Shown piece after piece: positions 31,000 through 56,003 of a stretch of DNA of 64,000 nucleotides (its first letter is position 1; every line of letters begins with the position of its first letter). The stretch lies in contig JAKNTW010000009.1 of assembly GCA_022213955.1 (NCBI GenBank), forward strand, positions 213,580-277,579, read 5' to 3'. A program made the position numbers and the translations under genes. The stretch is from Streptosporangium soli. GTDB lineage: Bacteria; Actinomycetota; Actinomycetes; Streptosporangiales; Streptosporangiaceae. The notes beneath the pieces are model-generated. The model did no database searches. It had not been told where the DNA came from and was given only the letters and a program-made list of their open reading frames with translations.

Positions 31000-33005
31000 T
31001 GCTTCGCGGCGGTCAGCGCGGCGACGGGCGACTCGGCGACGCCGAGATGCTGTGCGGTCTCCAGAAGCTGCCGCATCTTGTCCTCGTCGGGCCCGCCCGC
31101 CTTGATCAGCTTGACCAGCAGCGCGGACAGCGTCAGGTCGCGCACCCCGGCGGAGTCCACCGACCGCAGCAGCTGGGCCAGGTCCGCGCCCAGGTGCGCG
31201 TCCCCGTTGAGGTACGGCTTGGCCAGGGCGCCGGCGACGTCGGAGTGCTGGATGAAGCCGTCGACGCTCTTCCCGGCGGAGATGGAGTTCACCAGCCGGT
31301 CGAAGAAGATGCCGTCCCCGCCGACGATGTCGATCTTGGCCTTCTCCAGCCCGGTGGCCAGCACGGTGGCCTGCGCCTGGGCCACGTCCCGCCGTACGTT
31401 GACCTCGGCGAGCCTGATCTCCTTCTCCGCGTCCAGCCGGAGGCGGTACTCCTCGTGGGTGCGGGTGGCGTCGTCGAGCGCGGCCATCGCGGCGGCCTTC
31501 TCGGTGAGGCCCTCGGCCTCCGCCTTGAGCTTCTCGCCGATCGCGGCGGCGGCGACCAGTGCCTTCTCCCGCTCGACGACGGCCTCGGCCCTGCCGACCC
31601 GCTCGATGGCCACCGCGTCGCGCTCGCGGACCTGCACCTCGGCCAGGCCGGTCGCCGCGGCCTCCGCCTGGGCGCCCTCGGCGAGCCTGATCTTCGCGCG
31701 GGTGTCCAGCTCGGCGGCCTGCTGGCGGGCCTCGGCGAGGACCAGTGCCTCACGCGCCTTGTGCTTGGCCGACGTCTCCGCGGCCTCGGCCGCCTTGATG
31801 TCCTTGACCAGGCCCTCCTGCGCCTCGGCCTCGGCCTGGATCACGATGGCCTGGCGGGTGCGCTCGGCCTCCTCGACGACCCGCAGGCGCTTGATGTTCT
31901 CCTCCTGCTCGGCGACCGTCTTCTCCACGGCGATCCGCTCGCGGATCACCTCGGCGATCGACCGCTTCTCCCCTTCGAGCTCCTTGTCCTTGGAGATCCG
32001 GGACAGCTCGGTCTCGCGTTCCCTGGAGATGACCTCCAGCATCCGGTCCTTTTCGATCCGCTCGGTCTCGATCGCGATGACCCGCTCGCGGTTCTTCTCC
32101 GCGACGGCGATCTCCCTGGCCTGGTTCTCCTGCTGGATGCCGAGCTGCTCGTCGGTGCGGAGGTCGGCCGCGCGCGCCTTGAGCCGCTCCTCGGCCCTGA
32201 CCTTGGCGGTCTCGGCCTCCTCGCGGGCCCGCATGGTCTCGATCTCGCGCTTCTGCTTGGTCTCGGCGTCGGCCTGCCGCCGTTCCAGCTCCAGGATGGC
32301 CTCCCTCGCGTCGACGTTCTGGCGGGTGATCTCCTTCTCCTCGTGGCGGCGGAACTCGTTGGTGCGGACGTTCTCGCTCGCGGTGAGTTCGGTGATCTTG
32401 CGGATGCCCTGCGCGTCGAGGATGTTGGCGGGGTCGAGCTGTGACATCGGGGTCTGCTCGAGGAAGTCGATCGCCGCGTCCTCAAGGCTGTAGCCGTTGA
32501 GGTCGGTGCCGATGACCCGGATGATCTGGTCGCGGAACTCGTCGCGCTGGGTGTAGAGGTCGACGAAGTCGAGCTGCTTGCCGACGGTCTTCAGCGCCTC
32601 GGAGAACTTCGCGTTGAACAGCTCCTGCAGCGTCGACTCGTCGCTGGCCCTGGCGGTGCCGATGGCCTGGGCCACCTTGATCACGTCCTCCACGGTCTTG
32701 TTGACCCGGACGAAGAAGGTGATGCGGATGTCGGCCCTGATGTTGTCCTTGCAGATCAGTCCCTCGTGGCCGGACCGGTTGATCTCGATTGTCTTGACCG
32801 AGATGTCCATGATCTCGGCCCGGTGCACCACCGGCAACACGATCTTCCCGGTGAACGTCACGTCCACCTTGTTGACCTTCGAGACGATCAGCGCCTTACC
32901 TTGTTCGACTTTGCGGAACAGGCGGCTGATCACGAACAGCAGGCCGATGACGATGATGAGGACGACGGCGAGCAGAATGCCGAACCCGGTGGAGATGACG
33001 TCCAT
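30996..33005 (-). CDS. flotillin/SPFH (band 7) family protein, YqiK-like
   Basis: N-terminal TM segment plus SPFH domain, then a long E/A/R-rich coiled coil typical of bacterial flotillins. 669 aa. Confidence 0.9.
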   Translation of the reverse strand: MDVISTGFGILLAVVLIIVIGLLFVISRLFRKVEQGKALIVSKVNKVDVTFTGKIVLPVVHRAEIMDISVKTIEINRSGHEGLICKDNIRADIRITFFVRVNKTVEDVIKVAQAIGTARASDESTLQELFNAKFSEALKTVGKQLDFVDLYTQRDEFRDQIIRVIGTDLNGYSLEDAAIDFLEQTPMSQLDPANILDAQGIRKITELTASENVRTNEFRRHEEKEITRQNVDAREAILELERRQADAETKQKREIETMRAREEAETAKVRAEERLKARAADLRTDEQLGIQQENQAREIAVAEKNRERVIAIETERIEKDRMLEVISRERETELSRISKDKELEGEKRSIAEVIRERIAVEKTVAEQEENIKRLRVVEEAERTRQAIVIQAEAEAQEGLVKDIKAAEAAETSAKHKAREALVLAEARQQAAELDTRAKIRLAEGAQAEAAATGLAEVQVRERDAVAIERVGRAEAVVEREKALVAAAAIGEKLKAEAEGLTEKAAAMAALDDATRTHEEYRLRLDAEKEIRLAEVNVRRDVAQAQATVLATGLEKAKIDIVGGDGIFFDRLVNSISAGKSVDGFIQHSDVAGALAKPYLNGDAHLGADLAQLLRSVDSAGVRDLTLSALLVKLIKAGGPDEDKMRQLLETAQHLGVAESPVAALTAAKQ

Positions 33006-37765: not shown

Positions 37766-40492
37766 TTACGGGGCTCGGAGGTAGGCCACGCCGAAGGCGG
37801 AGTCGGCGGGGGTGCCCTCCGGGGAGTGGCAGTAGACGTCCACGGTCAGCTGCGGTGGGGCGCTGTAGGAGTTGAAAACGCCCAGGTGGCAGTACTGGCC
37901 GGGGGTGTTGGTGGTGACCTGGGCGCTGTCGATCGGCTTGCCGATGCCGGTGTGGACGACCCGGTACCACCCCTTCGCCAGCCGGGTGACTGTCGGGGAT
38001 CCGCCGTCGCTGCTGTAGGAGCGGCGTTGGTCGATCACCGGGCCGGCCGGGTCGCCGGTGGTCGTGACGTAGGCGGCGGGCGCCGACGGGTCGCGGTGAA
38101 GTCCCCGGCCCTGCACGTAGGAGAGCACCCAGGGGGAGTCGACGCGCCGCGCCGTGGATTCCCCGCTCACGGCGTAACAGCCGACGGCCACCTCCAGGGT
38201 GTCACCGGCGACGGTCGTGCCCTCCGGGTGACAGCGGGCCGGCCCGCCCGAGCCGTACGGCGTGACCTGCGGGTAGCCGCTGTCCTCGGTGAACGCGGCG
38301 CCTTTGAGGACGACCTTGTAACGGCCCGGACCCTCGTGGCGGACGTGGTTGACCTGGCCGGCGGAGTTGTAGGTGCCGTCGTTGCGCACGGGGGTGAGGC
38401 TGCCGGTTCCGCCGGGCGGGTTGTAGCGGACCGTGGCGTACGGCGTGTCGCCCGGGGCGGCCGGCGCGGCGAAGAACACGGTGAACCACCAGTCGATCGG
38501 TGCCCCGGTGTGGTCGAAGCACCGCACGCGGATCACCTCGTCCGGTACGGCGGGCTCCTGACCGGCCACCGCGCACGTCCGCCCCCGATAGGTCGTGCGA
38601 TACGCCGTCACGTGCGCCACTCCGGTCGCGGAGGCGATGTCGGGCAGCCGGACGGTGTACTCGCCGGTGCCCGTATGGGTCACCGTCGCCCGGTGTGCGG
38701 CGTTGGCGGGGTCACGCCGTCCGGTGGTCCACTGGAAGGTGGCGTCCAGCGCGGTCTCGGCGCCCAGCGGGGCGGTCGCCTTGTCCATGTAGGCGAAACC
38801 CCAGCGGGGAGTGGCCGACGCGGTGGGCGCGGCCGCCGCCACCATGGCGTCGATCAGCTCCGCGACGACGCGCTTGCCCTGCTCCTCGGTGAGTCCCGGC
38901 TCCGGGGCGCTCGGCGGCGGGCTGCCGGCGTCGGGGGAGACGCCGACCCGGAAGGTGATGTTCTCCCAGTCGTCCGAGCCGGTCAACGGCGTGCTGTCAG
39001 GCTCGGTGCCGCCCAGCAGGTTGACGGAGACCTCGCGGGTGGGATCGGGATCCGGGACGCCGGCGGAACTCCAGTTCCAGTCGAGGCCGCGCCTGGCGTC
39101 GCCGACGCGCAGGACGCGAGCCGGGTCCCGCCACGCCGCCGTCAGGCCGGTACTCGCCCCGATGCCCGCACTCTCCACGAGCCGCGTCATCTGGAGATCG
39201 TCCAGTTTCTCGCGCGAGTAGTCGATGGCGCTCACCGCCTCCGCCGTCTCCACCCAGGAGTCCTCGGCGGTGTCGCCGGGCATGTCGCGCAGGGCGGCCA
39301 GCCAGGCGCTGTAGTCGGGCAGGCCGGTGAGCTGGTACTGGTAGCTCAGGACGGACAAGTAGTTCGGCTTGTAGTTGGTGTTGTCGCCGCCGCCGTGCAG
39401 GAGACCGAGCGCGTGTCCCAGTTCGTGGACGAAGGTGCCGCTCTGCGTTCGGTCGGTGATCTCGTCCCAGGCTCCCAGGGACACGATGAAGTCGATCGCG
39501 TAGCCGTCCACGGGGGCGTAGCCGCTGCTGGTGGACTCGTCGTGCTTGTATCCCCAGAGGTTGTAGAAGAACAGGTTCTGCCGGTGCGGCGGGAAGTGGG
39601 CCGCCCGGTGCCGGTCGAAGCCGGTCCGCCCGTCCTCCCCCTGCTCGCGCAGTGGCCGCCGGCGCTCGGCGGGGGTGACCGGGATGGCGTCCGAGAGGTC
39701 GACCAGCAGTTGGATGCCGGGCTCGGGCCTGGGGCCGTACGGGCACTGTGCCGCCGCGTTGACCGGCGCGTTGTCGAACATGTGGCGCGCCTCGTCCATC
39801 GCGGTCGCCGACGGCCGGTCGGACGCGGTCCCGTCGTCGAGCCAGTCGATCTCGACGGCCGTCGTCTTCCGGCACGGGTCCGCGGCCCGGTCGGGGAGCC
39901 AGGTGTCGAGCGTGCCGTCCGCCCGCCGGATGCCGAAGAGTTCCACCCGGTCGGTCAGGCCGTCCCCGTCGGTGTCGGGATCCGGCCGGCCCTCGTTGGT
40001 GTTCCACGACTGGTCGGTGTTCTTGTAGAAGCGGTGCAGCGGTTCGGCGGGGTCCGGGGAGGCTCGGTCGTAGTACACGGCTCCGGTGTCACGGTCGGTG
40101 ACGCGCAGCGCCTGCAGGTTCCAGTTGTCCGCCGAGATATCGGGCTTGGTCGTCTCGTGGGTGAATGTGAAGCCGTCGAGCAGGTGCCTCGCCGGCACGC
40201 ACGGCGTCAGGTGGGTGTCCCAGGTGAAGGTGGCGTTCCGGGTGTCGCCCGTGCCTCCCCGGTGGAAGGGCTGGGGCGTGGCGTCGGGTGTGCCGTCGCC
40301 GTCCCCGTCCTCGAAGAGGAGGGTTCCGCCGCCGAAGGTGATCCTCTCGGTGGACGTGTCGTGCAGGCCGTCGTCGCCGGTGGTGACGGTGAACGTCACC
40401 CGGCACACCTCGCCGGCGGCGGCCCGCGCGGGACCGGCCGGAACGGCCGACACCCCCGCCACCGTGAGTGCCGCCAGGAGGACGAGGGCCAT
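37766..40492 (-). CDS. secreted zinc metalloprotease (HExxH), multidomain, ~900 aa
   Basis: Signal peptide. VHELGHALGLLHGG zinc site. Long C-terminal beta-rich region with repeated Cys-containing modules. An alternative upstream start exists at 40582. Confidence 0.8.
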   Translation of the reverse strand: MALVLLAALTVAGVSAVPAGPARAAAGEVCRVTFTVTTGDDGLHDTSTERITFGGGTLLFEDGDGDGTPDATPQPFHRGGTGDTRNATFTWDTHLTPCVPARHLLDGFTFTHETTKPDISADNWNLQALRVTDRDTGAVYYDRASPDPAEPLHRFYKNTDQSWNTNEGRPDPDTDGDGLTDRVELFGIRRADGTLDTWLPDRAADPCRKTTAVEIDWLDDGTASDRPSATAMDEARHMFDNAPVNAAAQCPYGPRPEPGIQLLVDLSDAIPVTPAERRRPLREQGEDGRTGFDRHRAAHFPPHRQNLFFYNLWGYKHDESTSSGYAPVDGYAIDFIVSLGAWDEITDRTQSGTFVHELGHALGLLHGGGDNTNYKPNYLSVLSYQYQLTGLPDYSAWLAALRDMPGDTAEDSWVETAEAVSAIDYSREKLDDLQMTRLVESAGIGASTGLTAAWRDPARVLRVGDARRGLDWNWSSAGVPDPDPTREVSVNLLGGTEPDSTPLTGSDDWENITFRVGVSPDAGSPPPSAPEPGLTEEQGKRVVAELIDAMVAAAAPTASATPRWGFAYMDKATAPLGAETALDATFQWTTGRRDPANAAHRATVTHTGTGEYTVRLPDIASATGVAHVTAYRTTYRGRTCAVAGQEPAVPDEVIRVRCFDHTGAPIDWWFTVFFAAPAAPGDTPYATVRYNPPGGTGSLTPVRNDGTYNSAGQVNHVRHEGPGRYKVVLKGAAFTEDSGYPQVTPYGSGGPARCHPEGTTVAGDTLEVAVGCYAVSGESTARRVDSPWVLSYVQGRGLHRDPSAPAAYVTTTGDPAGPVIDQRRSYSSDGGSPTVTRLAKGWYRVVHTGIGKPIDSAQVTTNTPGQYCHLGVFNSYSAPPQLTVDVYCHSPEGTPADSAFGVAYLRAP

Positions 40493-40884
40493 CAGCGCGG
40501 GCAGCCGCCGGCCGCGGGTACGGCTCCGCGGTCCGGGGCCGCGCGTGGGCCCGCTGTGATCTTCGTCGGTCGCTGATCGCAATTCGGCTCCCTCTTTCGA
40601 ATGAGTCGCAGGTCTGGCCGATGTCAGGTCGACGGTGGGGCAGCGCTGCGATGCCGGACAACGAATCGCGAATCATCCGTACAAGTCCGGACACGACATC
40701 CGGGCCTTTCCGGCCTTCCGGGCGCTCCTGGCCTGTAACTATTCGTGGTCTGTCGACGACGTACAGGTGTGCCGGCCTGTCGTCGCCCCCGCCTCGCCCT
40801 GAGCCGGTGCCCCACGACACCCGGGCGGGGCGCGTCCCCGCGTGACCTCCACCCGCCGGCCCGGACGCCCTGACAGGAACTCAT

Positions 40885-41712
40885 GTGACCTCTGCCGGAA
40901 CGACCCAATCCCCCTCGGCCGCACGCCAGACCGCCGCGCTAACGGCGCTGGGCGTGGTCGCGGACGTGGCGGCGCTCGCCCAGCTCCTGGTCAGCGGCCC
41001 GCAGATGGGCATCCTCGTCGCGGGGGTGCTGGCGGCGCTGTCGGGCATCGGCGGGCTGATCCGGCGGTTCGGCGAGCCGATCGGCCCCGGCGCCCTCGTC
41101 ATGGCGGCCCTCATCGCCATCGGGGCGGGCACGGCGGGAGTGTCCGCCGAGCGGCTCCTGAGCGATCAGGCCGCGCTCGGTCCGGCCTCGCAGAGCCGTA
41201 CCCTCGCCCCCGGGCCCTCGGGACCGGTCGCCTCCGAGCCCGTTGCCGGTGACACCGGGAGTACGGGCCCGTCGAGTGCCGCGCTCCCCAGCCCGTCGCC
41301 GTCCGCCTCGGTCGCTCCCGACGACGGGGCGAAGGGGACGCCTGCGCCCGCCCGCGGAGCGGTCGTCAACCAGGGCAGGGCCGTGCTCGTGGACCTCGAC
41401 TACCTGGATCTGGAAGGCGGCGTGATCAGCGAGGTGAACGACGCCGCCGACATCACCTACAACGCTCCTTACAAGGAGATATGGACCAAGGGCGGTGGGG
41501 CGCTGTGGATCACCCCGTTCTCCGGCGAGCCCAGCATGGCCCAATGCGAGGATCGGCTGCGCTCGCGGCACTACGGGAGCGTGTCCGTCGAACAGGGCGG
41601 CTGGTTCTGCGTGGAGACGGCCCAGAAGAACATCGGCGCGGGGCAGTTCGTCAAGGCCGCCGAGCGGGACGGAGAAGAGCTGACCCTCGCGTACATCGTC
41701 TGGCGACGATGA
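40885..41712 (+). CDS. hypothetical membrane-anchored protein (TM segment + Ala/Pro/Ser-rich linker + C-terminal domain)
   Basis: GTG start per the ORF track. High GC3. No recognisable domain. Confidence 0.5.
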   Translation: MTSAGTTQSPSAARQTAALTALGVVADVAALAQLLVSGPQMGILVAGVLAALSGIGGLIRRFGEPIGPGALVMAALIAIGAGTAGVSAERLLSDQAALGPASQSRTLAPGPSGPVASEPVAGDTGSTGPSSAALPSPSPSASVAPDDGAKGTPAPARGAVVNQGRAVLVDLDYLDLEGGVISEVNDAADITYNAPYKEIWTKGGGALWITPFSGEPSMAQCEDRLRSRHYGSVSVEQGGWFCVETAQKNIGAGQFVKAAERDGEELTLAYIVWRR

Positions 41713-47111: not shown

Positions 47112-47492
47112 TCAGGCGTCGAAGCGGCGGCGGGAGGCTTCGATGTCGACGAGGTACCGGCTGGTCCAGTCGCACATTCCATTGACCGTCGCTCGCAGGG
47201 CCTGGCCCGGCTCGGTGAGGGTGTAGTCGACCCGCGGCGGCACGGTGGGGTGCACGGTCCGCTCGACCAGGCCGTTGCGCTCCAGCATGCGCAGATTCTG
47301 GGTGAGCATCTTGTGGCTGATGCCCTCGACCTCATTCCGCAACTCGGTGAAGCGCAGGGTGCGTTCACCGAGGAACTCGATGATCAGAAACGCCCACTTG
47401 TTGGCGACGTCCGAGAAGATCTCCCGCGCCAGAGAGTCCGCGCGCGTGAGGTCCGCGTCCTCGGGCGAGCCCTTGAACTGCTTGGTCACCAT
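47112..47492 (-). CDS. HxlR family winged-helix transcriptional regulator
   Basis: FSDVANKWAFLIIEFL...TLRFTELRNEVEGISHKMLTQNLRMLERNGLV is the HxlR signature. Confidence 0.8.
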   Translation of the reverse strand: MVTKQFKGSPEDADLTRADSLAREIFSDVANKWAFLIIEFLGERTLRFTELRNEVEGISHKMLTQNLRMLERNGLVERTVHPTVPPRVDYTLTEPGQALRATVNGMCDWTSRYLVDIEASRRRFDA

Positions 47493-47613
47493 AAGGTTCT
47501 CCAGTCACTGGAAAGTGCGTTCTTCCACGTCAGCGGCCACTCTCCTATGGTTCCTGAGTAACCACAAGAGAGCATAAGTAGCCCACGGGCTCATGACGAA
47601 GGAGGCGGGCAGC

Positions 47614-48021
47614 ATGGCCATCACTCTGGTGAACCCCAGTGGACTGCCGGAAATCGATGCGTACCGGCAGGTGTCCATCGCGACCGGGTCGAAGCTGGTC
47701 TTCATCGCCGGGCAGGTCGCCTGGGATGCCAAGGGGGTCACGGTCGGCGAAGGTGACCTCGCCGCTCAGGTCGAGCAGTGCTACCTCAACATCGGCACTG
47801 CCCTGGCCGGGGTCGGCGGCTCCTTCGACGACGTGGCGAAACTAACCGTCTACGTCGTCGACTGGACCCCCGACAAGATGCCCCTGTTCCTGGAGGGGGT
47901 CACTCGGGCGGCCGCGAAGCTAGGCGTCACCCCGGTCCCGCCGGGCACGCTGCTGGGTGTTGCGGCACTGGACGTACCCGGCCATCTGGTTGAGGTCGAG
48001 GCCACCGCGATCATCGACTGA
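47614..48021 (+). CDS. RidA/YjgF family protein
   Basis: RBS gaaggagg. Conserved YjgF C-terminal region and size (~135 aa). Confidence 0.85.
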   Translation: MAITLVNPSGLPEIDAYRQVSIATGSKLVFIAGQVAWDAKGVTVGEGDLAAQVEQCYLNIGTALAGVGGSFDDVAKLTVYVVDWTPDKMPLFLEGVTRAAAKLGVTPVPPGTLLGVAALDVPGHLVEVEATAIID

Positions 48022-48028
48022 ACGGGTG

Positions 48029-49243
48029 TCAGGTGGGGTTCAGTTCGTCGGCGCGGAGGGCCAGGAGGACGTCGGCGCGGACCAGGTCGGCGGGGGTTTC
48101 TGCGTTGAGGAGGCGGGTGATGCGGCGGACCCGGTAGGTGACCGTGTTCTCGTGGACGGCCAGCAGGCGGGCGGTGGTGCGGGTGGAGAGGCCGCTGGTC
48201 AGGAACACCCGTAGCGTTTCCACCAGGGCGGGGCTGCCGCGCAGCGGGGTGAGGATGGAGTCGGTGAGCCGACGCGCGTCGAGCGGGTTGCCGATGAGGA
48301 GCACCTCGGGGATGACGTTCTCGAACGGCACCACCACCCGGTCGGCCCTCATCCGCAGGCCGGCTTCGAGGGCGGAGAGCGCCTCCTTGCATGAGGCGCC
48401 CGCCTCGCCGAGCCGGGGCCGGGGCTCGCCGAGGCCGACGATGAGCCGGGCGGGCATGCCGGGCCTGCGGGCGGCACGGGTGAACGCTTCGCCGATGCCG
48501 GGCGCGTCGGCGAACACGAGCAGCAGGGTCGAGCCCTTGCCGCCGACCAGCAGCCGGGAGGGAAGACGCGGCCTGACGGCTTCGAGGAGCATCCCCTGGG
48601 TGCGGGTGAGGGCCAGCGGGCTGGTCTCCTCGGGCATCCCGATGGCGGCGGCGCGGTGCGGGACCTGGGCGCGGACGCCGACCAGCCGGGCGCGTTCCTC
48701 GACGTCTCCCGGGTCGAGGGGTTCGCCGCCGGCCAGCCGGGAGACGAGGTCGGTGGCGATCTGGTCGAGGTGCCCGGCCGCCTCGGAGCGGGTCTGCCGG
48801 TAGGCGTCGGTGGACGCCTCGATCAGCACGTCCGTGCTCGTGGCCAGGCGGTGCGACAGCTCGATGAGGGTCTTGGTCGGAAGGGGCGGGCCGACGGTGG
48901 CGAGCCGCTCCAGGAGCAGTCGTTCGGCCGCGTGCCAGGAGGCGACCACCGCCTCGACGGGCACCCCCTGGATGGCCCGCCGCTGGCCCAGCGCCGCCGC
49001 CGGGTCGAGCTCCGACCCGCGCGGACCGCGGCGTTCGGCGACGGAGGCGAGCAGGACGCGCAGGTTGGGCGCGACCACGCCGGCGAGGTCCATCACGTCC
49101 ATCCGGGCGTGGTCGTAGCCGGGCAGGTTCTGCCAGACGGCGGCGACCAGGCTGGTGGCGAGGTCGTCGACCTGGGGGAGCAGGAGACCTACCCTTTGTG
49201 GCAGATCCACAAAGAACCTCCCCTCATATTCCAGTCGGTCCAC
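48029..49243 (-). CDS. PucR/CdaR family transcriptional regulator
   Basis: C-terminal PucR-type HTH (TTARLLAVHENTVTYRVRRITRLL). GTG start per the ORF track. Confidence 0.75.
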   Translation of the reverse strand: MDRLEYEGRFFVDLPQRVGLLLPQVDDLATSLVAAVWQNLPGYDHARMDVMDLAGVVAPNLRVLLASVAERRGPRGSELDPAAALGQRRAIQGVPVEAVVASWHAAERLLLERLATVGPPLPTKTLIELSHRLATSTDVLIEASTDAYRQTRSEAAGHLDQIATDLVSRLAGGEPLDPGDVEERARLVGVRAQVPHRAAAIGMPEETSPLALTRTQGMLLEAVRPRLPSRLLVGGKGSTLLLVFADAPGIGEAFTRAARRPGMPARLIVGLGEPRPRLGEAGASCKEALSALEAGLRMRADRVVVPFENVIPEVLLIGNPLDARRLTDSILTPLRGSPALVETLRVFLTSGLSTRTTARLLAVHENTVTYRVRRITRLLNAETPADLVRADVLLALRADELNPT

Positions 49244-49308
49244 GTAGAGGGATCGAGAAGTGCTGACTGACTATGGAATATCACAGGTCAGATGAGGAGA
49301 GGACCCTC

Positions 49309-50646
49309 ATGAGTTCACAGGTCGCGCCCCCGGCGGAACGGGACACGCTCGCCACCGACCTTGACGATCACGCCCTCGAACCGGTCCCGACGAACCGCCG
49401 CAAGTCGCTGCTCCAGATGATCATTGTGCAGATCGGCTGGAACATCAGCGTCAGCAGCTTCCTGGTCGGCGGCGTGGTGGGCGGCGGCAGTTCCTTCGGG
49501 GCGGGCATCGCCGCCATCCTCGTCGGCAACCTGGTGCTGGTCGTGGTCTCGACCTTGGTCGGGCTGGTGGGCTACCGGACCGGGCTGTCGAGTTATCTGG
49601 CCGCCCGGGCGGTCTTCGGGCGGCACGGCGCGGTCGTCGTCTCGCTGCTGCTCGGCCTGCTCGCCATGGGGTTCATCGGGGTACTGATGGACACCTGGGG
49701 CGGTGCGGTGAACAAGCTGCTCCCGGCGATCCCCTCGTGGGTGTTCGTGCTGGCCTTCGCCCTGGCCATCACCTCCACGGCGATCTTCGGAATCAAGGGG
49801 CTCGCCAGGTTCTCCGCGATCGCCGTGCCCATCGAGATCGGCATCGCGCTGGTCGCCCTCTTCAAGATCGGCGGTATGGAGGGCGGCTTCGCCGAAGTCA
49901 TCGCACACACCCCCGCCGTGCCGATCGGGTTCGGCGCCGCCGTCGGAGCGGTGATCGCGACCTGGGTCACCGGAGCGGCGCTGGTCGGCGACGTGACCAG
50001 ATACGCCAGCCGCCCGCGCGATGTGATCATCTCCAGCTTCTGCGGCTTCGTCGCCGGCGCGGGCGTCTTCGAGACCATCTCCATGGTCTCCGCGATGAAG
50101 GTCGCCAACAGCAACTTCGTGCTGGTCATGCAGGGACTCGGGCTGCTCGCCCCGGCCGCGGTGATGCTGGTCCTCGCACTGTGGAACACCGCGGACAACA
50201 ACCTCTACTCCGCGTCGCTGGCCTTCACCAACGCCTCCAACACACTGGGCGCGCGGATCGGCAAGCCGGTGTGGACGATCGTCTCCATCGTGATCGCCGT
50301 GCTCGTGGCCTTCGCCGGGCTGGCAGACTCCTTCCTCGTCTTCCTGAACATCGTCGCGCTCGTCGCACCGCCGTTCGCCGGCGTCCTCATCGCGCACTTC
50401 TGGGTGCTGGCCCGCCACAGCTCGGGCACGGAACTCCTCCGCTCCGCGCCTGCCGTACGGGTCGAGGCCCTGGTCGCGTGGGCGCTGGCGGCGGTGCTCT
50501 CGAAGGTGACCGACGTGCTGCTGACCGACGCGATCGAGGGACTGGTGTACGGCTTCGTGTGCTACGCGCTGCTCGGCTGGGTGCTGAAGAGGATCAAACC
50601 GATGGGCGCGCCGGAGCCGGCCGTACCGGAAAGGGATGAGTCATGA
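49309..50646 (+). CDS. NCS1 family nucleobase/hydantoin-type cation symporter
   Basis: Strong RBS gaggagagg before ATG 49309. Twelve TM helices. NCS1 N-terminal signature (NRRKSLLQMIIVQIGWNIS). Confidence 0.8.
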   Translation: MSSQVAPPAERDTLATDLDDHALEPVPTNRRKSLLQMIIVQIGWNISVSSFLVGGVVGGGSSFGAGIAAILVGNLVLVVVSTLVGLVGYRTGLSSYLAARAVFGRHGAVVVSLLLGLLAMGFIGVLMDTWGGAVNKLLPAIPSWVFVLAFALAITSTAIFGIKGLARFSAIAVPIEIGIALVALFKIGGMEGGFAEVIAHTPAVPIGFGAAVGAVIATWVTGAALVGDVTRYASRPRDVIISSFCGFVAGAGVFETISMVSAMKVANSNFVLVMQGLGLLAPAAVMLVLALWNTADNNLYSASLAFTNASNTLGARIGKPVWTIVSIVIAVLVAFAGLADSFLVFLNIVALVAPPFAGVLIAHFWVLARHSSGTELLRSAPAVRVEALVAWALAAVLSKVTDVLLTDAIEGLVYGFVCYALLGWVLKRIKPMGAPEPAVPERDES

Positions 50647-51656
50647 GATTCGGCCTTGGAGTGCCGACGGGGACCGAAGGATTGATGTACCCGGTCCCCT
50701 ACGCCGACATCGGCCAGGCCGTACGGCTGGCGGTCGAGGCGGAGCGGCTGGGCTTCGACTCGGTGTGGGCCAACGATCACGTGTCGACCCAGGCGTACGT
50801 GCGGGAGGAGTTCGAGACTCCGCCGCGCTTCTACGACCCGTTCGGTTATCTCAGCTATGTCGCGGCGATCACCAGCAGGATCCGGCTGGCCACGGCGATC
50901 ATGGTGCTGCCGTTCCGCAACCCGGTGGTGGCCGCCAAGCAGGCCGCCACGCTCGACCAGCTCTCCGGCGGCCGGGCCGTGCTCGGGGTGGGCATCGGCG
51001 CCTACCGCGAGGAGTACGAGGCGATGAACCCCGGGCGTCCGCTGCACCGGGGCGAGCACGCGGCGGAGGCCATCCAGGCGTTGCAGGCGCTCTTCACCCG
51101 GCGGCGCGCGAGTTTCCACGGACGCTGGGTCGACTTCCACGACGTGGAGTCGTACCCCAAGCCGATGCAGCCGACGTTGCCGATCCTGTCGGGCGGCAAC
51201 GCGCCGGGGTCGCGCACCCGGGCCGCGCTGTACGCGGACGGCTGGCTGCCCGCCTGCCTCACCCCCGGGGAGGTGGCCGACGGCATCGCCGCGATCGGCG
51301 ACCGGGCCACCGCCGCGCGCGGCGGCCTGCCCCCGGGATTCGAGGTTGCTTTGCAGGTGGCCGTGTGCGTCGCGCCCACCATGGAAGAGGCGTGGCGCAG
51401 GTTCCGGGCCTCGCAGATCCACAACCACCTCGTCTCGCTGTCCGGCTCGACGCTGAAGGACCAGGGTGTGGAGGATCTGGCCCGCCGCAACCTCATCGGC
51501 ACCCCGGAGAGCGTGGCCGAACAGGTGGCGGCCTACCGGGCGGCCGGCGTCGACACCATGGCCGGGCTGCTGTTCGCGGCCAACACGGTGGAGGAGACGG
51601 TCGACGCGATGGCCGAGTTCAGCGAGACGATCATTGGCAGGGAGACGATCGGATGA
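50643..51656 (+). CDS. LLM-class F420/flavin-dependent oxidoreductase
   Basis: ATGA overlap with the permease stop. LLM TIM-barrel signature (WANDHVS, GGRAVLGVGIG). Confidence 0.85.
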   Translation: MRFGLGVPTGTEGLMYPVPYADIGQAVRLAVEAERLGFDSVWANDHVSTQAYVREEFETPPRFYDPFGYLSYVAAITSRIRLATAIMVLPFRNPVVAAKQAATLDQLSGGRAVLGVGIGAYREEYEAMNPGRPLHRGEHAAEAIQALQALFTRRRASFHGRWVDFHDVESYPKPMQPTLPILSGGNAPGSRTRAALYADGWLPACLTPGEVADGIAAIGDRATAARGGLPPGFEVALQVAVCVAPTMEEAWRRFRASQIHNHLVSLSGSTLKDQGVEDLARRNLIGTPESVAEQVAAYRAAGVDTMAGLLFAANTVEETVDAMAEFSETIIGRETIG

Positions 51657-51730
51657 CAGCGGGTCTGCGGGGTCCGGCCGGGTGGCGGCTGGGCGGCGAG
51701 ACGATCAGCGACGGGGAGACGATCGGATGA
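51653..51730 (+). other. junction-duplication mini-ORF (25 aa) MTAGLRGPAGWRLGGETISDGETIG
   Basis: ATG overlaps the LLM stop and its TGA overlaps the M24 ATG. Its C-terminus ETIG copies the LLM C-terminus (gagacgatcggatgac duplicated). Confidence 0.25.
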
Positions 51731-52935
51731 CCGTGGATCTGCGGGAACTCGCCGGGCAACGGCTGGGACGGCTGCGCGAGGCGTTGGCCGGGGCGCCCTT
51801 CGACGCCGTGATCCTCACCACGCCGGAGAGCATCCTCTACGCCACGGGGTACCGTTCCGTGGCCGGGCCGTTGTTCCGCGCGCACCGGATGGCCGCGCTG
51901 GTGACCGGGGACGACTGCTGGCTCGTCTGCCCCGCCGCCGACACGGCCCCGGCCGCCGACGCCGGGATGCCGGAGGACCGGCTGGTGCCCTTCGGCCGGT
52001 TCTACTTCGAGTCGGCCCTGGGCTCCCCGCTCACCGACATGTCCGACCGGCACCCGGACCTCCCGGCCGCGCTGGCGACCGCCGTCGGATTCGCCGGGCG
52101 AGGGCTGCGCTACGGCATCGAAGGACTCGCGGCCGATCCGCTTCTCGGCACGGCTGCGGGCTCGTCCGCGGGCTCGCCGGGCCGTACGTCCGCCGAGGGC
52201 TCGGCCGGTGCGGCCGTGGACGCGACGCAGTGGATGACCGCGTTGCGCGGTCCGAAGCTGCCCGGTGAGGTGGCGCTGCTCAGGCACGCGGCCCGGCTCG
52301 CCGAGGCGGGCGTGAACGCCGCGCTCGACGCCGCCGGACCGGGGATCACCGAGCAGGAACTGGCCGGCGTCGTCGCCGCGACCATGGTCGCCGAAGGTGG
52401 GGAGCCGCGGTTCGTGGTGGCCACGACCGGCCCGCGGTCGGCGCTCGCCGACGCCCACCCGACAGGCAGGACGTGGCAGCCCGGCGAACTGGCCAGGTTC
52501 GACGTGGGATGCCTCTACGGCGGCTACTACTCCGACATCGGCCGCACCGCCGTACTGGGCGGGCCCGACCACCGGCAGACCAGCCGGTACGCCGCGATCC
52601 TCGACGGTCTGGACGAGCAGATCGCGCTGGCCAAGCCGGGGGTCACCGCCGAGGAGCTGTTCGAGATCGCGATGGAGACCGTGCGGCGGGGCGGGATCGC
52701 CCCCTACCGGCGGCAGCACTGCGGGCACGGCATCGGGCTGTCCATCTACGAGCAGCCGATCATCGCGCCGGGGACCGCGACGGCGCTCGAAGAGGGCATG
52801 ACATTCTGCTTCGAGACGCCGTACTACGAGATCGGATGGGGCGGGATGATGGTCGAGGACACCCTGGTGGTGACCGCCGACGGCGTCGATTTGTTCACCC
52901 ACTCCCCGCGCGCCCTGCCGGTGGTGCCCGCATGA
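51727..52935 (+). CDS. M24 family metallohydrolase (creatinase/Xaa-Pro aminopeptidase/ectoine-hydrolase-like)
   Basis: Pita-bread fold metal ligands (DVGCLYGGYYSDIGRT, HGIGLSIYEQP, FCFE). ORF 51466..52935 trimmed to MTVDLREL. Confidence 0.85.
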   Translation: MTVDLRELAGQRLGRLREALAGAPFDAVILTTPESILYATGYRSVAGPLFRAHRMAALVTGDDCWLVCPAADTAPAADAGMPEDRLVPFGRFYFESALGSPLTDMSDRHPDLPAALATAVGFAGRGLRYGIEGLAADPLLGTAAGSSAGSPGRTSAEGSAGAAVDATQWMTALRGPKLPGEVALLRHAARLAEAGVNAALDAAGPGITEQELAGVVAATMVAEGGEPRFVVATTGPRSALADAHPTGRTWQPGELARFDVGCLYGGYYSDIGRTAVLGGPDHRQTSRYAAILDGLDEQIALAKPGVTAEELFEIAMETVRRGGIAPYRRQHCGHGIGLSIYEQPIIAPGTATALEEGMTFCFETPYYEIGWGGMMVEDTLVVTADGVDLFTHSPRALPVVPA

Positions 52936-54179
52936 GTCACTACCTCGGCCGCCTGGCCTGCCTGCGCTGCGCCGCCGCGTACGCGGACCCGAGCGTGGAG
53001 CTGCTCGGCCGCGGCTGCCCGGCGTGCGAACGCGACGGCGTGCCCGCCAACGTCCTGCCCGAGTACGCCATTCCCGCCACCGGCGTGCTGCCCGTGTCGC
53101 AGGGCGAGCCGGGGCTCTTCCGCCACCGGTCGCTGCTGCCGCTGGACCCCGCCACCCCCGCGGTCAGCCTCGGCGAAGGCGACACGCCGCTGGTGTCCCT
53201 CCCGCGTACGGCGGAGCGCCTGGGGCTGGCGGCCGTCCACGTCAAGGACGAGACCCGCAACCCGACCTGGTCGTACAAGGACCGGCTGGCTTCGGTGGCC
53301 CTGACGAAGGCCGTCGAGCTGGGCGCTCCCGCCGTGGTCGTGGCGAGCACCGGCAACCACGGTGCGGCGGTCGCCGCGTACGCGGCCCGTGCGGGGGTGC
53401 GCTGCGTGGTGCTCACGGTCGCCTCCGTGCCCGACACGATGAAGACGTTGATGCAGGTCTACGGCGCCGACGTGGTGGCGCTCAAGCAGCCCCCCGACCG
53501 CTGGCGGCTGATGCGGCAGCTCGTGGAGGAGCGCGGCTGGCTGCCGATGTCGGGGCACGCCGCCCCGCCGGTGGGTTCCATCGGCTACGGCGTCGACGGC
53601 TACAAGACGATCTCCTACGAGATCGTCGCGGAACTCGGCCGGGTGCCCGACTTCGTGGTGGTCCCCGTCGCCTACGCCGACGGCCTCGCCGGGATCTGGC
53701 GCGGCTTCGCCGACCTGGTCGCGCTCGGCGTCGCCGACCGGATGCCCAAGCTGGTGGCCGCCGAGCCGTTCGGGCCGCTCGCGGGCGCGCTCGCCGCGGG
53801 CGCGGAGGTGGCGGGGCCGGTGCCGATCACCCCGTCGGTCGCCTTCTCCATCGCCTCGCCGTTCGGCACCTACCAGGGGCTGGCCGCGCTGCGCGCCACC
53901 GGCGGACGCGCCGTGGGCGTGCCCGACGACGACCGCATCCTCGACGCCCAGCGCCGCCTCGGCCGGGAGGCGGGACTCTATCTGGAGGCCTCGTCGGTGA
54001 CCACACTGCTCGCGCTCGAAGAACTCGTCGCCGAGGGCGCCGTGCCGCCCGGCGCGACCACGGTCCTGATCGGCTCCTCCACCGGTCTGAAGGACGTCGG
54101 CGCCACCGCGGGCACGCTCCGGCCGGTCCCGGTCGTGGAGCCGACGCCCGCCGCGCTGGATCGGGCGTTGCAGGCGTGA
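52932..54179 (+). CDS. threonine-synthase-like PLP-dependent enzyme (fold-type II) with N-terminal Cys4 zinc-ribbon
   Basis: PLP-Lys in NPTWSYKDRLA. Gly-rich loop ASTGNHGAA. N-terminal CLRC...CPAC motif. ATGA coupling to the M24 gene. Confidence 0.8.
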   Translation: MSHYLGRLACLRCAAAYADPSVELLGRGCPACERDGVPANVLPEYAIPATGVLPVSQGEPGLFRHRSLLPLDPATPAVSLGEGDTPLVSLPRTAERLGLAAVHVKDETRNPTWSYKDRLASVALTKAVELGAPAVVVASTGNHGAAVAAYAARAGVRCVVLTVASVPDTMKTLMQVYGADVVALKQPPDRWRLMRQLVEERGWLPMSGHAAPPVGSIGYGVDGYKTISYEIVAELGRVPDFVVVPVAYADGLAGIWRGFADLVALGVADRMPKLVAAEPFGPLAGALAAGAEVAGPVPITPSVAFSIASPFGTYQGLAALRATGGRAVGVPDDDRILDAQRRLGREAGLYLEASSVTTLLALEELVAEGAVPPGATTVLIGSSTGLKDVGATAGTLRPVPVVEPTPAALDRALQA

Positions 54180-55129
54180 AGCTCGCGTTCTCGATCTCCG
54201 GCCAACGGCACGCGGGCTCCGCCGTACGGGTGGCGAGGCAGGCGGAGGAGGCGGGGTACGACACCGTCTGGGTGACGGAGGACTACTGCGAGCGGGGGGC
54301 GTTCGCGCTCGCCGGGGCGATCGCGGCGGCCACCGAACGGGTGCGCGTCGGGATCGGCGTGGTCAACCCGTGGACGAGGCATCCGGCGCTGATCGCGATG
54401 GAACTGGCCGCCCTGGAGGAGATCAGCGAGGGACGGGCCGTCCTCGGGCTGGGCGCGAGCAACCCCCGGTGGATGACCGACCGGCTCGGCATCCCCTTCG
54501 AGAAGCCGATCGGGCGGCTGACCGAGGCGGTCGACGTGGTCCGCGCGTTCCTGACCGGCGAGGAGGTGCGCTTCGACGGCGAGCACTTCCAGATCGCCGC
54601 CGGGCTAGCGTTCACCCCGCCGCGCACCAGGCCGCCGATCGTGCTCGGCGTCAAGGGCCCGCGTGCGGTGGCCATGGCCGCCGGTCGCGCCGACGGCCTG
54701 CTGCTGTCGATCCTGTCGTCGCCGCCGTACGTCGCCTCGGTGCGTGAGCGGGTCGGTCCGGCGATGGAGCTCGCGGCGTACGTCGCGCTGTCGGTCGACC
54801 CGGACGTGTCCCTCGCGCGAGACCGGGTGCGGCCCATGGTGGCGACCTATCTCGGCGTGCACGGCGAACACGAGATCACCCGTACGGCCGGGCTGGCCGC
54901 GGAGTTGTGCGCCGCCTTCCGGGAGGGCTGGCTGGCGGGCAGCCCGCGGGTGGACCTCGTCGACGACGACCTGGTGGACCTGTTCACCGTCGCCGGCACG
55001 TCCGGCGACGCCGCCCGTTCGTTGTCCCGGCTCGCCGAGGCGGGCCTGGACGTGGCCGTCGTACGCGACGATCCGGGCGGTGACGTCGAGGAGTTGTTGC
55101 GGCTTACTCGTCGCCTAGTGCCCGCATGA
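54176..55129 (+). CDS. LLM-class F420-dependent oxidoreductase
   Basis: GTGA coupling to the upstream gene. LLM signature (WVTEDY, GRAVLGLGAS). Confidence 0.8.
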   Translation: MKLAFSISGQRHAGSAVRVARQAEEAGYDTVWVTEDYCERGAFALAGAIAAATERVRVGIGVVNPWTRHPALIAMELAALEEISEGRAVLGLGASNPRWMTDRLGIPFEKPIGRLTEAVDVVRAFLTGEEVRFDGEHFQIAAGLAFTPPRTRPPIVLGVKGPRAVAMAAGRADGLLLSILSSPPYVASVRERVGPAMELAAYVALSVDPDVSLARDRVRPMVATYLGVHGEHEITRTAGLAAELCAAFREGWLAGSPRVDLVDDDLVDLFTVAGTSGDAARSLSRLAEAGLDVAVVRDDPGGDVEELLRLTRRLVPA

Positions 55130-56003
55130 TCTGCGGCTGGGTGTTGACCCGCCGGGTCGGCCCGCGCCACATGTCGATCGCGTCGGGCTCCGCCGGGTCC
55201 CAGTAGCGCGGTTGCCACGCCGCCTCGTCGGTGATCAGCCGCACGCCGTAGGAGTATTCGTAGGTGAGGCCCTCCGGTCCCTTGAAATAGAGGAAGATCG
55301 CGGTCGACTGGGGGTGCCTGCCGGGGCCCATCTCGATCTCGACGCCCTGCTCCTGCAGGAAATGCCAGTTGCGCATGACGTCGTCGATCGAGTCGACCTG
55401 GAAGTTGATGTGGCACAGGCCCGGTGAGCTGCCCTTGAAGAAGGCCAGCTTGTGGTGGACGGGGTCGATGCGCATCAGGCACGCCCAGTCGCCGATCCAG
55501 TCGGAGGCCCTGGCGTTGAACATGGTGGACCAGAACCGGTGGGCCTCGCGCACGTCGGCGGCGTCGAGGCAGAGATGGCCGAACTCGGTGATGCCCGACG
55601 GCCGGCCGTGCCGCATCGGACGTCGCACCTTGACCTGGTCGATCACCAGGTCGATGCGGTTGCCGAAGGGATCGTCGAAGGCGATGAAGTCGCGGACCCT
55701 GCGCGACCTGGCCTGCTCCGGGGTGCCCCGGGCGACCTTGACGCCGGAGAGCTCCAGCTCGTTCTCGGCGCGTTCGAGTGCGTGTTCGTCAGCGAGGACG
55801 AAGGCGGAGGACAGCACGCCCGAGCAGCCTTCGACGAAGGCCAGGCAGTGGTGGCGGTCGTCGGCGCGCAGATAGGCGACGCCCTCCTCCTCCCCGGCCG
55901 GTTCCATGCCGACGATGTCGACAGCGAACCGCACAGCGGCGGGTAAGTCACCGGCCCCCGAACGGACATATGCGATATCGAGGAGATCGATCACATCACG
56001 CAT
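55104..56003 (-). CDS. extradiol ring-cleavage dioxygenase (two-domain VOC/glyoxalase superfamily, catechol 2,3-dioxygenase-like)
   Basis: Tandem VOC modules with metal-ligand His/Glu (HLCL, HHKLAF, LTYEYSYG). Convergent 26-nt overlap with the preceding LLM gene. Confidence 0.8.
   Translation of the reverse strand: MRDVIDLLDIAYVRSGAGDLPAAVRFAVDIVGMEPAGEEEGVAYLRADDRHHCLAFVEGCSGVLSSAFVLADEHALERAENELELSGVKVARGTPEQARSRRVRDFIAFDDPFGNRIDLVIDQVKVRRPMRHGRPSGITEFGHLCLDAADVREAHRFWSTMFNARASDWIGDWACLMRIDPVHHKLAFFKGSSPGLCHINFQVDSIDDVMRNWHFLQEQGVEIEMGPGRHPQSTAIFLYFKGPEGLTYEYSYGVRLITDEAAWQPRYWDPAEPDAIDMWRGPTRRVNTQPQIMRALGDE

Follow-up and report, generated by a model that had tools for sequence, protein, structure and literature searches.

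Several described systems lie close to the locus considered here. The known Eut/Doe pathway of ectoine catabolism uses an M24 hydrolase, a fold-type-II pyridoxal 5'-phosphate (PLP) enzyme and an OCD-family protein, and a 2026 survey describes putative PucR-linked Gram-positive ectoine clusters with M24, EutB, EutC and an M20 amidohydrolase (PMC13188858). The other close systems are the B. subtilis PucR purine/allantoin regulon together with NCS1-dependent hydantoin use (PucI, Mhp1/Hyu), the prolidase PepQ combined with Dpp/Opp-type import, threonine synthase (ThrC, EC 4.2.3.1) and Mer. We analysed a window of 64,000 nucleotides from Streptosporangium soli (contig JAKNTW010000009.1), in which a PucR-family regulator stands divergent to an operon of five genes encoding one importer and four enzymes: a CodB-like NCS1 permease, a luciferase-like oxidoreductase (LLM1), an M24 metallohydrolase, a PLP enzyme of threonine-synthase fold and a second, Mer-like luciferase-like oxidoreductase (LLM2). 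The operon and its relatives in other genomes are referred to below as the module.

Families were assigned by Pfam and NCBIfam profile searches, with the NCBIfam equivalog cut-offs as the criterion of orthology. The module resembles ectoine catabolism in joining an M24 hydrolase to a fold-type-II PLP enzyme and to a partner of the imine-reductase type, which in the Dactylosporangium variant is an OCD protein, in its PucR regulator, which the putative Gram-positive ectoine clusters also have, and in the M20 amidohydrolase beside some clusters. However, its proteins are not orthologues of the ectoine enzymes, scoring far under the DoeA, DoeA2, EutB, EutC and DoeB2 cut-offs, and it differs in having a PLP enzyme of ThrC fold rather than a threonine-dehydratase-like one, two F420-type luciferase-like enzymes and other importers. 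With the PucR and hydantoin systems it shares a PucR regulator, an NCS1 permease, a metallohydrolase and a PLP enzyme, but it lacks allantoinase, allantoate amidohydrolase, hydantoinase and carbamoylase, its permease is CodB-like and not PucI- or Mhp1-like, and NCS1 is dispensable in most versions. PepQ is the nearest solved relative of the M24 catalytic domain, with all five metal ligands aligned, and many module versions use a Dpp-type ABC importer; a plain dipeptidase, however, needs no coupled PLP enzyme and two F420 oxidoreductases. The PLP enzyme has the fold, the S-x-K-D-R lysine and the zinc ribbon of ThrC, whereas other motifs are replaced throughout its clade and its gene lies in a catabolic operon. 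LLM2 aligns with Mer over its full length and LLM1 belongs to a luciferase-like family labelled F420-dependent, but neither reaches an equivalog cut-off for Mer, and these bacteria are not expected to contain tetrahydromethanopterin.

Literature searches for the combination of gene families (threonine synthase, creatinase, luciferase-like, cytosine permease, F420, M24, PucR) returned nothing. Searches on S-methyl thiohydantoin desulfurase likewise gave no result, those on diketopiperazine catabolism gave nothing relevant, and those on threonine synthase-like proteins gave only papers on mammalian THNSL. These results agree with an earlier sequence-only reading of the window, which could match the gene set to no known pathway; of the operon enzymes, only LLM1 reaches an NCBIfam cut-off. 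The parts all come from known families and a regulated catabolic operon is of an ordinary kind, whereas the literature searched has no description of the combination of families, of the phosphate-free ThrC clade or of the fixed M24 partner of that clade.

We read the operon as a self-contained cassette, probably substrate-induced, that would import and degrade a small nitrogen-rich amide, and we put the probability of this reading at roughly 40%. The bond that is cleaved would most likely be an amide or amidine bond involving an imino-acid-like nitrogen. The analysis supports the earlier proposal of a translationally coupled operon with a divergent PucR regulator for the import and breakdown of a small compound.

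To find relatives of the PLP enzyme, we ran a degenerate-pattern scan over one genome per species, which returned 349 places, and examined the best 80 for genes within 6 kb of the PLP gene. The results showed LLM1 in 71 of these 80 species loci, M24 in 71, a Mer-like LLM in 65, PucR in 43 and NCS1 in 27. The set is thus strongly co-conserved, contrary to the lack of co-conservation that would have refuted the sequence-only reading. The LLM1-M24-PLP core and the Mer-like LLM stay together across Actinomycetota and also in other phyla.

The architecture varied around this core. A divergent PucR gene followed by NCS1-LLM1-M24-PLP-LLM2 was present in Streptosporangiales, Micromonosporales, Jiangella, Pseudonocardia, Phytoactinopolyspora and Nitriliruptoraceae, and in Spirilliplanes and Pseudonocardia the same six-gene unit (PucR plus the five-gene operon) was flanked by unrelated DNA. 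In Cellulomonas, Nocardioides, Dactylosporangium and Microbacteriaceae, LLM1-M24-PLP-LLM2 came after a Dpp/Opp-type ABC importer, and the PucR gene was convergent. In Acidimicrobiia and gammaproteobacterial metagenome-assembled genomes (MAGs), a Dpp ABC importer, SnoaL proteins and another Mer-like LLM preceded LLM1-M24-PLP, with SDRs, 2-hydroxyacid dehydrogenases, DUF917, CoxLMS and hydantoinase-A-like genes as neighbours. Rokubacteria had PLP-LLM2-LLM1-M24 followed by a Liv-type ABC importer. The plasmid search yielded informative variants and no annotated pathway; on a Rhodococcus plasmid, the series MFS-M24-PLP-PrpD-like-GDH-like stands beside a LysR gene and both LLMs are absent. M24 followed by PLP was the most constant pairing seen and the sole one kept on that plasmid; LLM1 was as frequent as M24, and the Dactylosporangium loci retain LLM1-PLP without M24. 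In a Euzebyaceae MAG (L075, 130-10221), two paralogous LLM/PLP/M24 sets lie side by side, which suggests that the module has diversified for related substrates.

Natural replacements were seen at two Dactylosporangium loci. M24 is missing there and the cluster holds an Amidohydro_1 enzyme instead, which matches NF051886 'Xaa-Pro dipeptidase' (266 bits) far better than any other model. LLM2 is missing at these two loci too, and an OCD/mu-crystallin protein comes after the PLP gene instead (L052), with a Pyr2C/Pip2C reductase (232 bits) as its best match. Some module versions add an M20 aminoacylase, and unrelated RidA genes adjoin the module in Gordonia (L066, 11782-12198) and Nocardioides (L082, 13709-14278), as a RidA-family gene also does in the window. 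Because of these replacements, additions and RidA neighbours, the comparisons suggest a scheme of prolidase-type amide hydrolysis, PLP-dependent elimination to an enamine or imine, and imine reduction.

The M24 protein of S. soli matched Peptidase_M24 (2.6e-48) and Creatinase_N (9.4e-09) in Pfam. The best Protein Data Bank (PDB) match of its catalytic domain was the Xaa-Pro dipeptidase of P. furiosus (PepQ, PDB 1pv9; 4.4e-35), the only full-length structural match, N-terminal domain included, was DoeA (residues 7-397, 1e-14), and the N-terminal domain alone had no match in the PDB. The metal ligands D259, D270, H334, E363 and E377 were invariant in 51 of 51 M24 orthologues and aligned with the ligand positions of P. 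furiosus prolidase, which we take to be D209, D220, H284, E313 and E327. The scores fell far short of the PepQ model (124.8 bits; cut-off 630) and of both DoeA models (TIGR02993, 67.9 against 613; NF038259, 99 against 575). The protein is thus assigned as a metallohydrolase by its predicted ligands, and by score it is an orthologue of neither DoeA nor PepQ. Creatinase is a metal-independent amidinohydrolase that has lost the M24 metal ligands. Assignment of the S. soli protein as a creatinase was rejected, as all five ligands are kept and only the Creatinase_N domain is in common; the earlier label 'creatinase-type' was misleading, the nearest solved relatives being Xaa-Pro dipeptidases. With the five ligands kept and the Dactylosporangium substitute matching Xaa-Pro dipeptidase, a prolidase-like hydrolase is predicted. 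At about 52140-52185, the S. soli gene carries an insertion of about 14 Ser/Ala/Gly-rich residues (SSAGSPGRTSAEGS) in the linker before the catalytic domain, which the aligned orthologues lack.

The PLP enzyme matched PALP in Pfam (6.5e-62), and its sequence is 100% identical to an S. soli entry at NCBI. Its AlphaFold2 model (pLDDT 90.2) was searched against the PDB with Foldseek, and the top 13 matches were all bacterial ThrCs (probability 1.00, TM about 0.82 on the target); profile E-values against four ThrC structures ranged from 3.6e-57 to 4.3e-53. The catalytic lysine K116 in NPTWSYKDR (S-x-K-D-R) was invariant in an alignment of 13 sequences, and the N-terminus carries a four-cysteine zinc ribbon, as in PRK08197-type ThrCs. 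However, the ThrC equivalog cut-offs were all missed (PRK08197, 208.4 against 303; TIGR00260, 128.9 against 167.1; PRK05638, 164.6 against 421). The motifs also differ: NPTWSYKDR was present in 108 of 120 PLP homologues where ThrCs have NPTGSFKDR, (S/T)TGNHGAA in 119 of 120 where ThrCs have TGNTSAA, and P-x-A-Y-(A/G)-D-G in more than 100 of the 120 where ThrCs have PVGNAGN, while NP(F/Y)G(V/I)(D/E)GYK replaces the ThrC motif NPxRxEGQKT clade-wide (Arg to Gly). The solved ThrCs of B. subtilis and M. tuberculosis in the alignment keep the canonical motifs. The Arg of NPxRxEGQKT, GNAGN and TGNT(S) presumably form the pocket for the phosphate of O-phosphohomoserine, as in the T. thermophilus and B. 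subtilis structures. A true ThrC was therefore rejected, given the missed cut-offs and the replaced motifs, and because the presumed phosphate-pocket motifs are replaced by Trp, His, Tyr and Asp, the sequence argues for a different, non-phosphorylated substrate. Elimination chemistry is plausible in view of the ThrC fold, the replaced motifs and the RidA genes beside the module. On a Mycobacterium plasmid (NZ_AP025525.1; L088, 8926-10176), a lone PLP paralogue with the same clade motifs follows directly on genes for a heavy-metal P-type ATPase and an HMA-domain protein and precedes a DUF305 gene, and M24 and LLM genes are missing; in five other mycobacterial loci (L055, L056, L068, L074 and L086), the PLP gene also stands alone.

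Both luciferase-like enzymes point to cofactor F420. LLM1 scored 210.5 bits on TIGR03619, a family labelled F420-dependent, above the cut-off of 166.9; papers that mention Rv2161c of this family have other subjects, and we know of no function assigned to it. LLM2 matched Bac_luciferase (1e-56), and its best NCBIfam matches were all Mer/F420 subfamilies under their cut-offs, the Mer models giving 182 and 160 bits; against the Mer structures of the PDB it aligned over its full length (2.6e-42). In Clostridia MAGs, a YheO-type regulator and M24-PLP-LLM2 are followed by an F420:NADP oxidoreductase-like gene, an ECF S-component, CofE (PF01996, 1.9e-76) and a HAD phosphatase. Because LLM1 exceeds the TIGR03619 cut-off, LLM2 is Mer-like and CofE and F420:NADP oxidoreductase-like genes are neighbours in Clostridia, F420 use by LLM1 and LLM2 is likely. 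In the MAG loci L060 (385-5900) and L084 (7050-13400), a low-GC module precedes the ECF-type S-component, the homologue of CofE (F420 glutamyl ligase) and the HAD phosphatase, with the F420:NADP oxidoreductase-like gene in L060 and the YheO-type regulator upstream in L084. The CofE-bearing variants hint at F420 salvage in a Clostridia lineage.

Under the proposed scheme, the compound would be imported and LLM1 would perform an F420-linked redox step on it. The binuclear M24 enzyme would then cleave a prolidase-type amide bond and free an alpha-amino acid, which the ThrC-fold PLP enzyme would convert by beta- or gamma-elimination (or replacement) to an enamine, an imine or a 2-oxo acid. LLM2, as a Mer-like F420H2-dependent enzyme, would reduce the imine, possibly a cyclic one, and the end products would be ordinary amino acids or oxo-acids and ammonia. 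A role of LLM2 as an imine reductase is suggested by its likeness to Mer and by the Pyr2C/Pip2C-like OCD protein that takes its place in Dactylosporangium. A more specific proposal, which we regard as distinctly doubtful, is a hitherto unrecognised F420-dependent catabolic pathway built around a ThrC-fold enzyme of a new reaction class, a phosphate-independent beta/gamma-lyase obligatorily paired with a prolidase-like M24 enzyme. Its substrate would be a nitrogen compound abundant in the environment, such as ectoine or hydroxyectoine, for which it would offer Actinobacteria an alternative route, or some other cyclic imino-acid amide or amidine.

Several points weigh against the amide cassette as set out here. 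What LLM1 and LLM2 do, and in which order the steps run, is inferred solely from the order of the genes, from likeness to known families and from gene replacement, the last of which was seen in one genus, at two loci. The scores of the OCD protein are spread over models of many functions (232 to 135 bits), so that 'ketimine reductase' is not a specific assignment. A tyrosine (Tyr341) stands in 51 of 51 M24 orthologues where the aligned prolidase has a histidine (HxxGHGxGLxxHE motif), and the chemistry may thus differ from peptide hydrolysis. The best solved relatives of LLM1 are FMN-dependent dimethylsulfone and alkanesulfonate monooxygenases (2.8e-19 to 1e-12). Finally, we know of no peptide substrates of NCS1 importers.

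The earlier proposal was uptake and ring-opening of a small N-heterocycle or cyclic amide, and the case for a heterocycle rests mainly on the importer. The S. soli permease matched Transp_cyt_pur (8.7e-23; 81.3 bits against 23.5), its best NCBIfam match was the cytosine permease PRK11017 (200.6 bits; cut-off 326), and it aligned with the cytosine permease structure 7qoa (2.6e-32); the allantoin permease model gave 25.9 bits. A ribosome-binding site, GAGGAGAGG, lies upstream of the permease gene. Elsewhere, the NCS1 permease is replaced by Dpp/Opp-type ABC, Liv-type ABC or MFS importers, and the Dpp-type binding protein matched generic peptide, nickel/metallophore and opine binders in the PDB, giving no clue to the ligand. 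A rival reading is the reductive opening of a small N-heterocycle (pyrimidine, hydantoin, creatinine or dihydroorotate-like). In it, LLM1 would use F420H2 to reduce the ring, M24 would act as a dihydropyrimidinase or hydantoinase does and open the cyclic amide, and the amino-acid product would pass to the PLP enzyme and LLM2. This reading fits the CodB-like permease and the PucR-family regulator, and its reduce-hydrolyse-PLP-reduce gene order resembles reductive pyrimidine catabolism. In Acidimicrobiia and Gammaproteobacteria, moreover, the core lies amid xanthine-dehydrogenase-like CoxLMS, DUF917 (distant relatives of thiohydantoin desulfurase) and hydantoinase-A/caprolactamase-like genes, and the amidohydrolase that replaces M24 weakly matches HutI, dihydropyrimidinase and allantoinase. 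Against this, NCS1 occurs in just the 27 loci counted above and other importers substitute for it, both alternative hydrolases score best against Xaa-Pro dipeptidases, and such heterocycle-type neighbours are missing from the actinomycete form found in the window. The ring-opened ureido or carbamoyl products would also have a blocked amine that the PLP enzyme could not use, and the operon has no decarbamoylase. Because the Dactylosporangium M24 substitute matches Xaa-Pro dipeptidase, a peptide-like or imino-acid amide is at least as likely a substrate as a heterocycle, and we judge reductive heterocycle opening to be somewhat unlikely. Ring-opening of a cyclic amide or amidine may yet be involved.

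If ectoine, hydroxyectoine or a similar cyclic-amidine imino acid were degraded here by a non-orthologous route that depends on F420, M24 would have the part of EutD/DoeA, the PLP enzyme that of EutB and LLM2 (or the OCD protein) that of EutC. The M24, PLP and OCD families recur in the Eut/Doe pathway, PucR and M20 in the putative Gram-positive clusters cited above, and the full-length alignment of M24 with DoeA points the same way, as do the 164 bits of the Dactylosporangium OCD protein on the EutC model, the 56 bits on DoeB2 of the M20 protein beside some clusters, and the presence of the module in soil and marine MAGs, as expected of a widespread osmolyte. The DoeA scores given above lie far under their cut-offs, however, and the PLP enzyme reached about 51-56 bits against the EutB cut-off of 413. 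No DoeB/EutE-type deacetylase was found in the window or in most related loci; most versions also lack an aminotransferase or semialdehyde dehydrogenase and any of the known ectoine importers, and the known chemistry has no role for two F420 enzymes. We give the ectoine-type route a small chance.

The solved relatives of LLM1 would also suit an operon for scavenging sulfur or nitrogen, with the LLMs working as FMNH2-dependent monooxygenases (SsuD/SfnG-like) on an organosulfur derivative of an amino acid, along the lines of the S-methylcysteine system ytmI-ytnM of B. subtilis; the M20 aminoacylase of some versions and a PLP fold common to cysteine and cysteate synthases would fit as well. The operon has no flavin reductase, however, LLM1 exceeds its F420-family cut-off and LLM2 is Mer-like, F420-related genes adjoin the Clostridia variants, and the regulator is of the PucR type and not of a sulfur-starvation type, which makes such an operon very improbable. 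Equally hard to sustain is a biosynthetic or salvage role, in which the ThrC-like enzyme, by the gamma- or beta-replacement that ThrC-fold enzymes catalyse, would turn an imported precursor into an unusual amino acid or a compound that binds metal: the lone Mycobacterium paralogue beside heavy-metal genes and the import of metallophores by Dpp/Nik-type binding proteins would suit it, but the module has an importer, a substrate-type regulator and a hydrolase tightly coupled upstream of the PLP enzyme, and no architecture seen held an exporter, ligase, synthetase or other biosynthetic partner.

The proposed amide cassette is probably substrate-induced, and its control region was examined by comparing the orthologous intergenic regions side by side. 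The regulator fits the PucR family by its C-terminal HTH_30 domain (46.7 bits, cut-off 27; 2.8e-12) and its GGDEF-like middle domain (GGDEF_2, 43.4 bits, cut-off 24.5; 4.7e-11), and its orthologues additionally show RsbRD_N. Its start is most likely the GTG at 49210 rather than 49243, because GGAGG lies six nucleotides upstream and codons 1-19 of the long open reading frame (ORF) are rich in A/T-ending codons. This GTG belongs to the perfect palindrome TTGTGGCAGATCCACAA at 49196-49212, which occurs once in the window (0 expected from shuffles). In nearly all loci with divergent PucR and NCS1 genes, the 5' end of PucR carries the pattern TGTG-N7-CACA; in 1.46 Mb of related loci it had 36 occurrences, nearly all at a PucR 5' end. 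The palindrome is conserved across several actinobacterial orders by means of A/T-ending codons, which are rare in genomes with a third-codon-position GC content (GC3) of about 0.93. It is a candidate autoregulatory PucR operator.

Conserved boxes were also found between the two genes, namely a CTTCCGG-like box, CCACGTAG, and GACTATGGAATATCACAGG at 49271-49289. The last, which precedes the permease gene, is conserved in loci of Streptosporangiaceae, and whether the ATG within it shares the permease reading frame depends on the genus. Because the frame differs between genera, the conservation lies at the DNA level; the box may be a promoter or a second operator, and an N-terminal extension of the permease was rejected. 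Scans for sigma-70 consensus promoters and terminators found nothing, and an Rfam search gave no riboswitch or leader match.

The window has a G+C content of about 71%, and GC3 was used to choose coding frames. All ORFs were present at their coordinates (Table 1) and supported as coding by the frame analysis, and every family named in the sequence-only reading (PucR, NCS1, two LLMs, M24, a threonine-synthase-like PLP enzyme and a two-domain extradiol dioxygenase) was confirmed by Pfam and NCBIfam. The chain of 4-nucleotide overlaps that it described is real, with ATGA at 50643, 51653, 51727 and 52932 and GTGA at 54176, but the chain links five genes and not six. The sixth ORF, 51653-51730 (25 codons), sits inside a 74-bp tandem repeat at 51622-51772 (Tandem Repeats Finder: period 74, 2.0 copies, 80% match) and is a chimera, its N-terminus copying the start of M24 and its C-terminus the end of LLM1; the duplication leaves both ATGA overlaps intact. 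The ORF and the duplication were missing from all 14 orthologous loci compared, including four other Streptosporangium genomes. In these loci, the LLM1 stop overlaps the M24 start or, at three Spongiactinospora loci, falls a few bases short of it. Because the ORF is a duplicated-junction chimera absent from the 14 loci, we assign it as a by-product of the duplication and not a gene.

Table 1. Features of the PucR-linked operon and its borders (positions in the window)
Feature	Position	Strand	Basis or remark
PucR-family regulator	48029..49210 (long ORF to 49243)	-	HTH_30, GGDEF_2; most likely start
Palindrome TTGTGGCAGATCCACAA, candidate PucR operator	49196..49212		overlaps regulator start codon
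Divergent control region, PucR/permease	49211..49308		side-by-side intergenic comparison of orthologous loci
CodB-like NCS1 permease	49309..50646	+	Transp_cyt_pur
LLM1, luciferase-like oxidoreductase	50643..51656	+	TIGR03619 (Rv2161c) family
74-bp tandem duplication, LLM1-stop/M24-start junction	51622..51772	+	Tandem Repeats Finder
M24 'pita-bread' metallohydrolase with Creatinase/Prolidase N-terminal domain	51727..52935	+	Peptidase_M24, Creatinase_N
Threonine-synthase-fold PLP enzyme with N-terminal 4-Cys zinc ribbon	52932..54179	+	PALP
LLM2, Mer-like (F420-type) luciferase-like oxidoreductase	54176..55129	+	Bac_luciferase, Mer models
Two-domain VOC extradiol dioxygenase	55104..56003	convergent on LLM2	Pfam/NCBIfam

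The extradiol dioxygenase, which had been counted into the cluster, adjoins the operon and lies outside the conserved unit. It overlaps LLM2 tail-to-tail by 26 bp (55104-55129) and sits between LLM2 and an mrp antiporter operon in S. soli. Counterparts of the window's dioxygenase, RidA and HxlR genes occurred within 6 kb of the PLP gene in 0 of the 80 species loci, and when the window proteins were searched by tblastn against 87 related loci, the dioxygenase had no match in any of them. The Spongiactinospora loci are syntenic (TetR upstream; mrpA, mrpD and mrpE downstream), and in them LLM2 is directly followed by mrpA. The dioxygenase was thus rejected as a pathway member, and because these syntenic loci lack it, it is assigned as a lineage-specific insertion at the 3' edge of the operon. 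On the other side, a divergent pair encoding an HxlR regulator and a RidA-family protein (47112-48021) ends 8 bp from the PucR stop; it was rejected as a member of the conserved unit, having no orthologous matches. Farther off in the window, 26074-31749 encodes a 1,891-residue protein with DUF3686 ('ATPase involved in DNA repair'), DUF7902 and AAA domains, and two well-supported ORFs, 37766-40672 and 40846-41712 (968 and 288 residues), have no Pfam match.

Most of the 80 loci carry the four-enzyme core, which ranges from actinomycetes of soil to marine Acidimicrobiia, Rokubacteria and Clostridia, and whose enzymes can be named only to family level. The PLP clade is routinely mis-annotated as 'threonine synthase', which matters for predictions of amino-acid biosynthesis in the genomes that carry it. 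The palindrome, the compact operon and the natural variants of importer, M24 and LLM2 make the system directly testable, and the module makes it likely that F420 takes part in the breakdown of a nitrogen compound.

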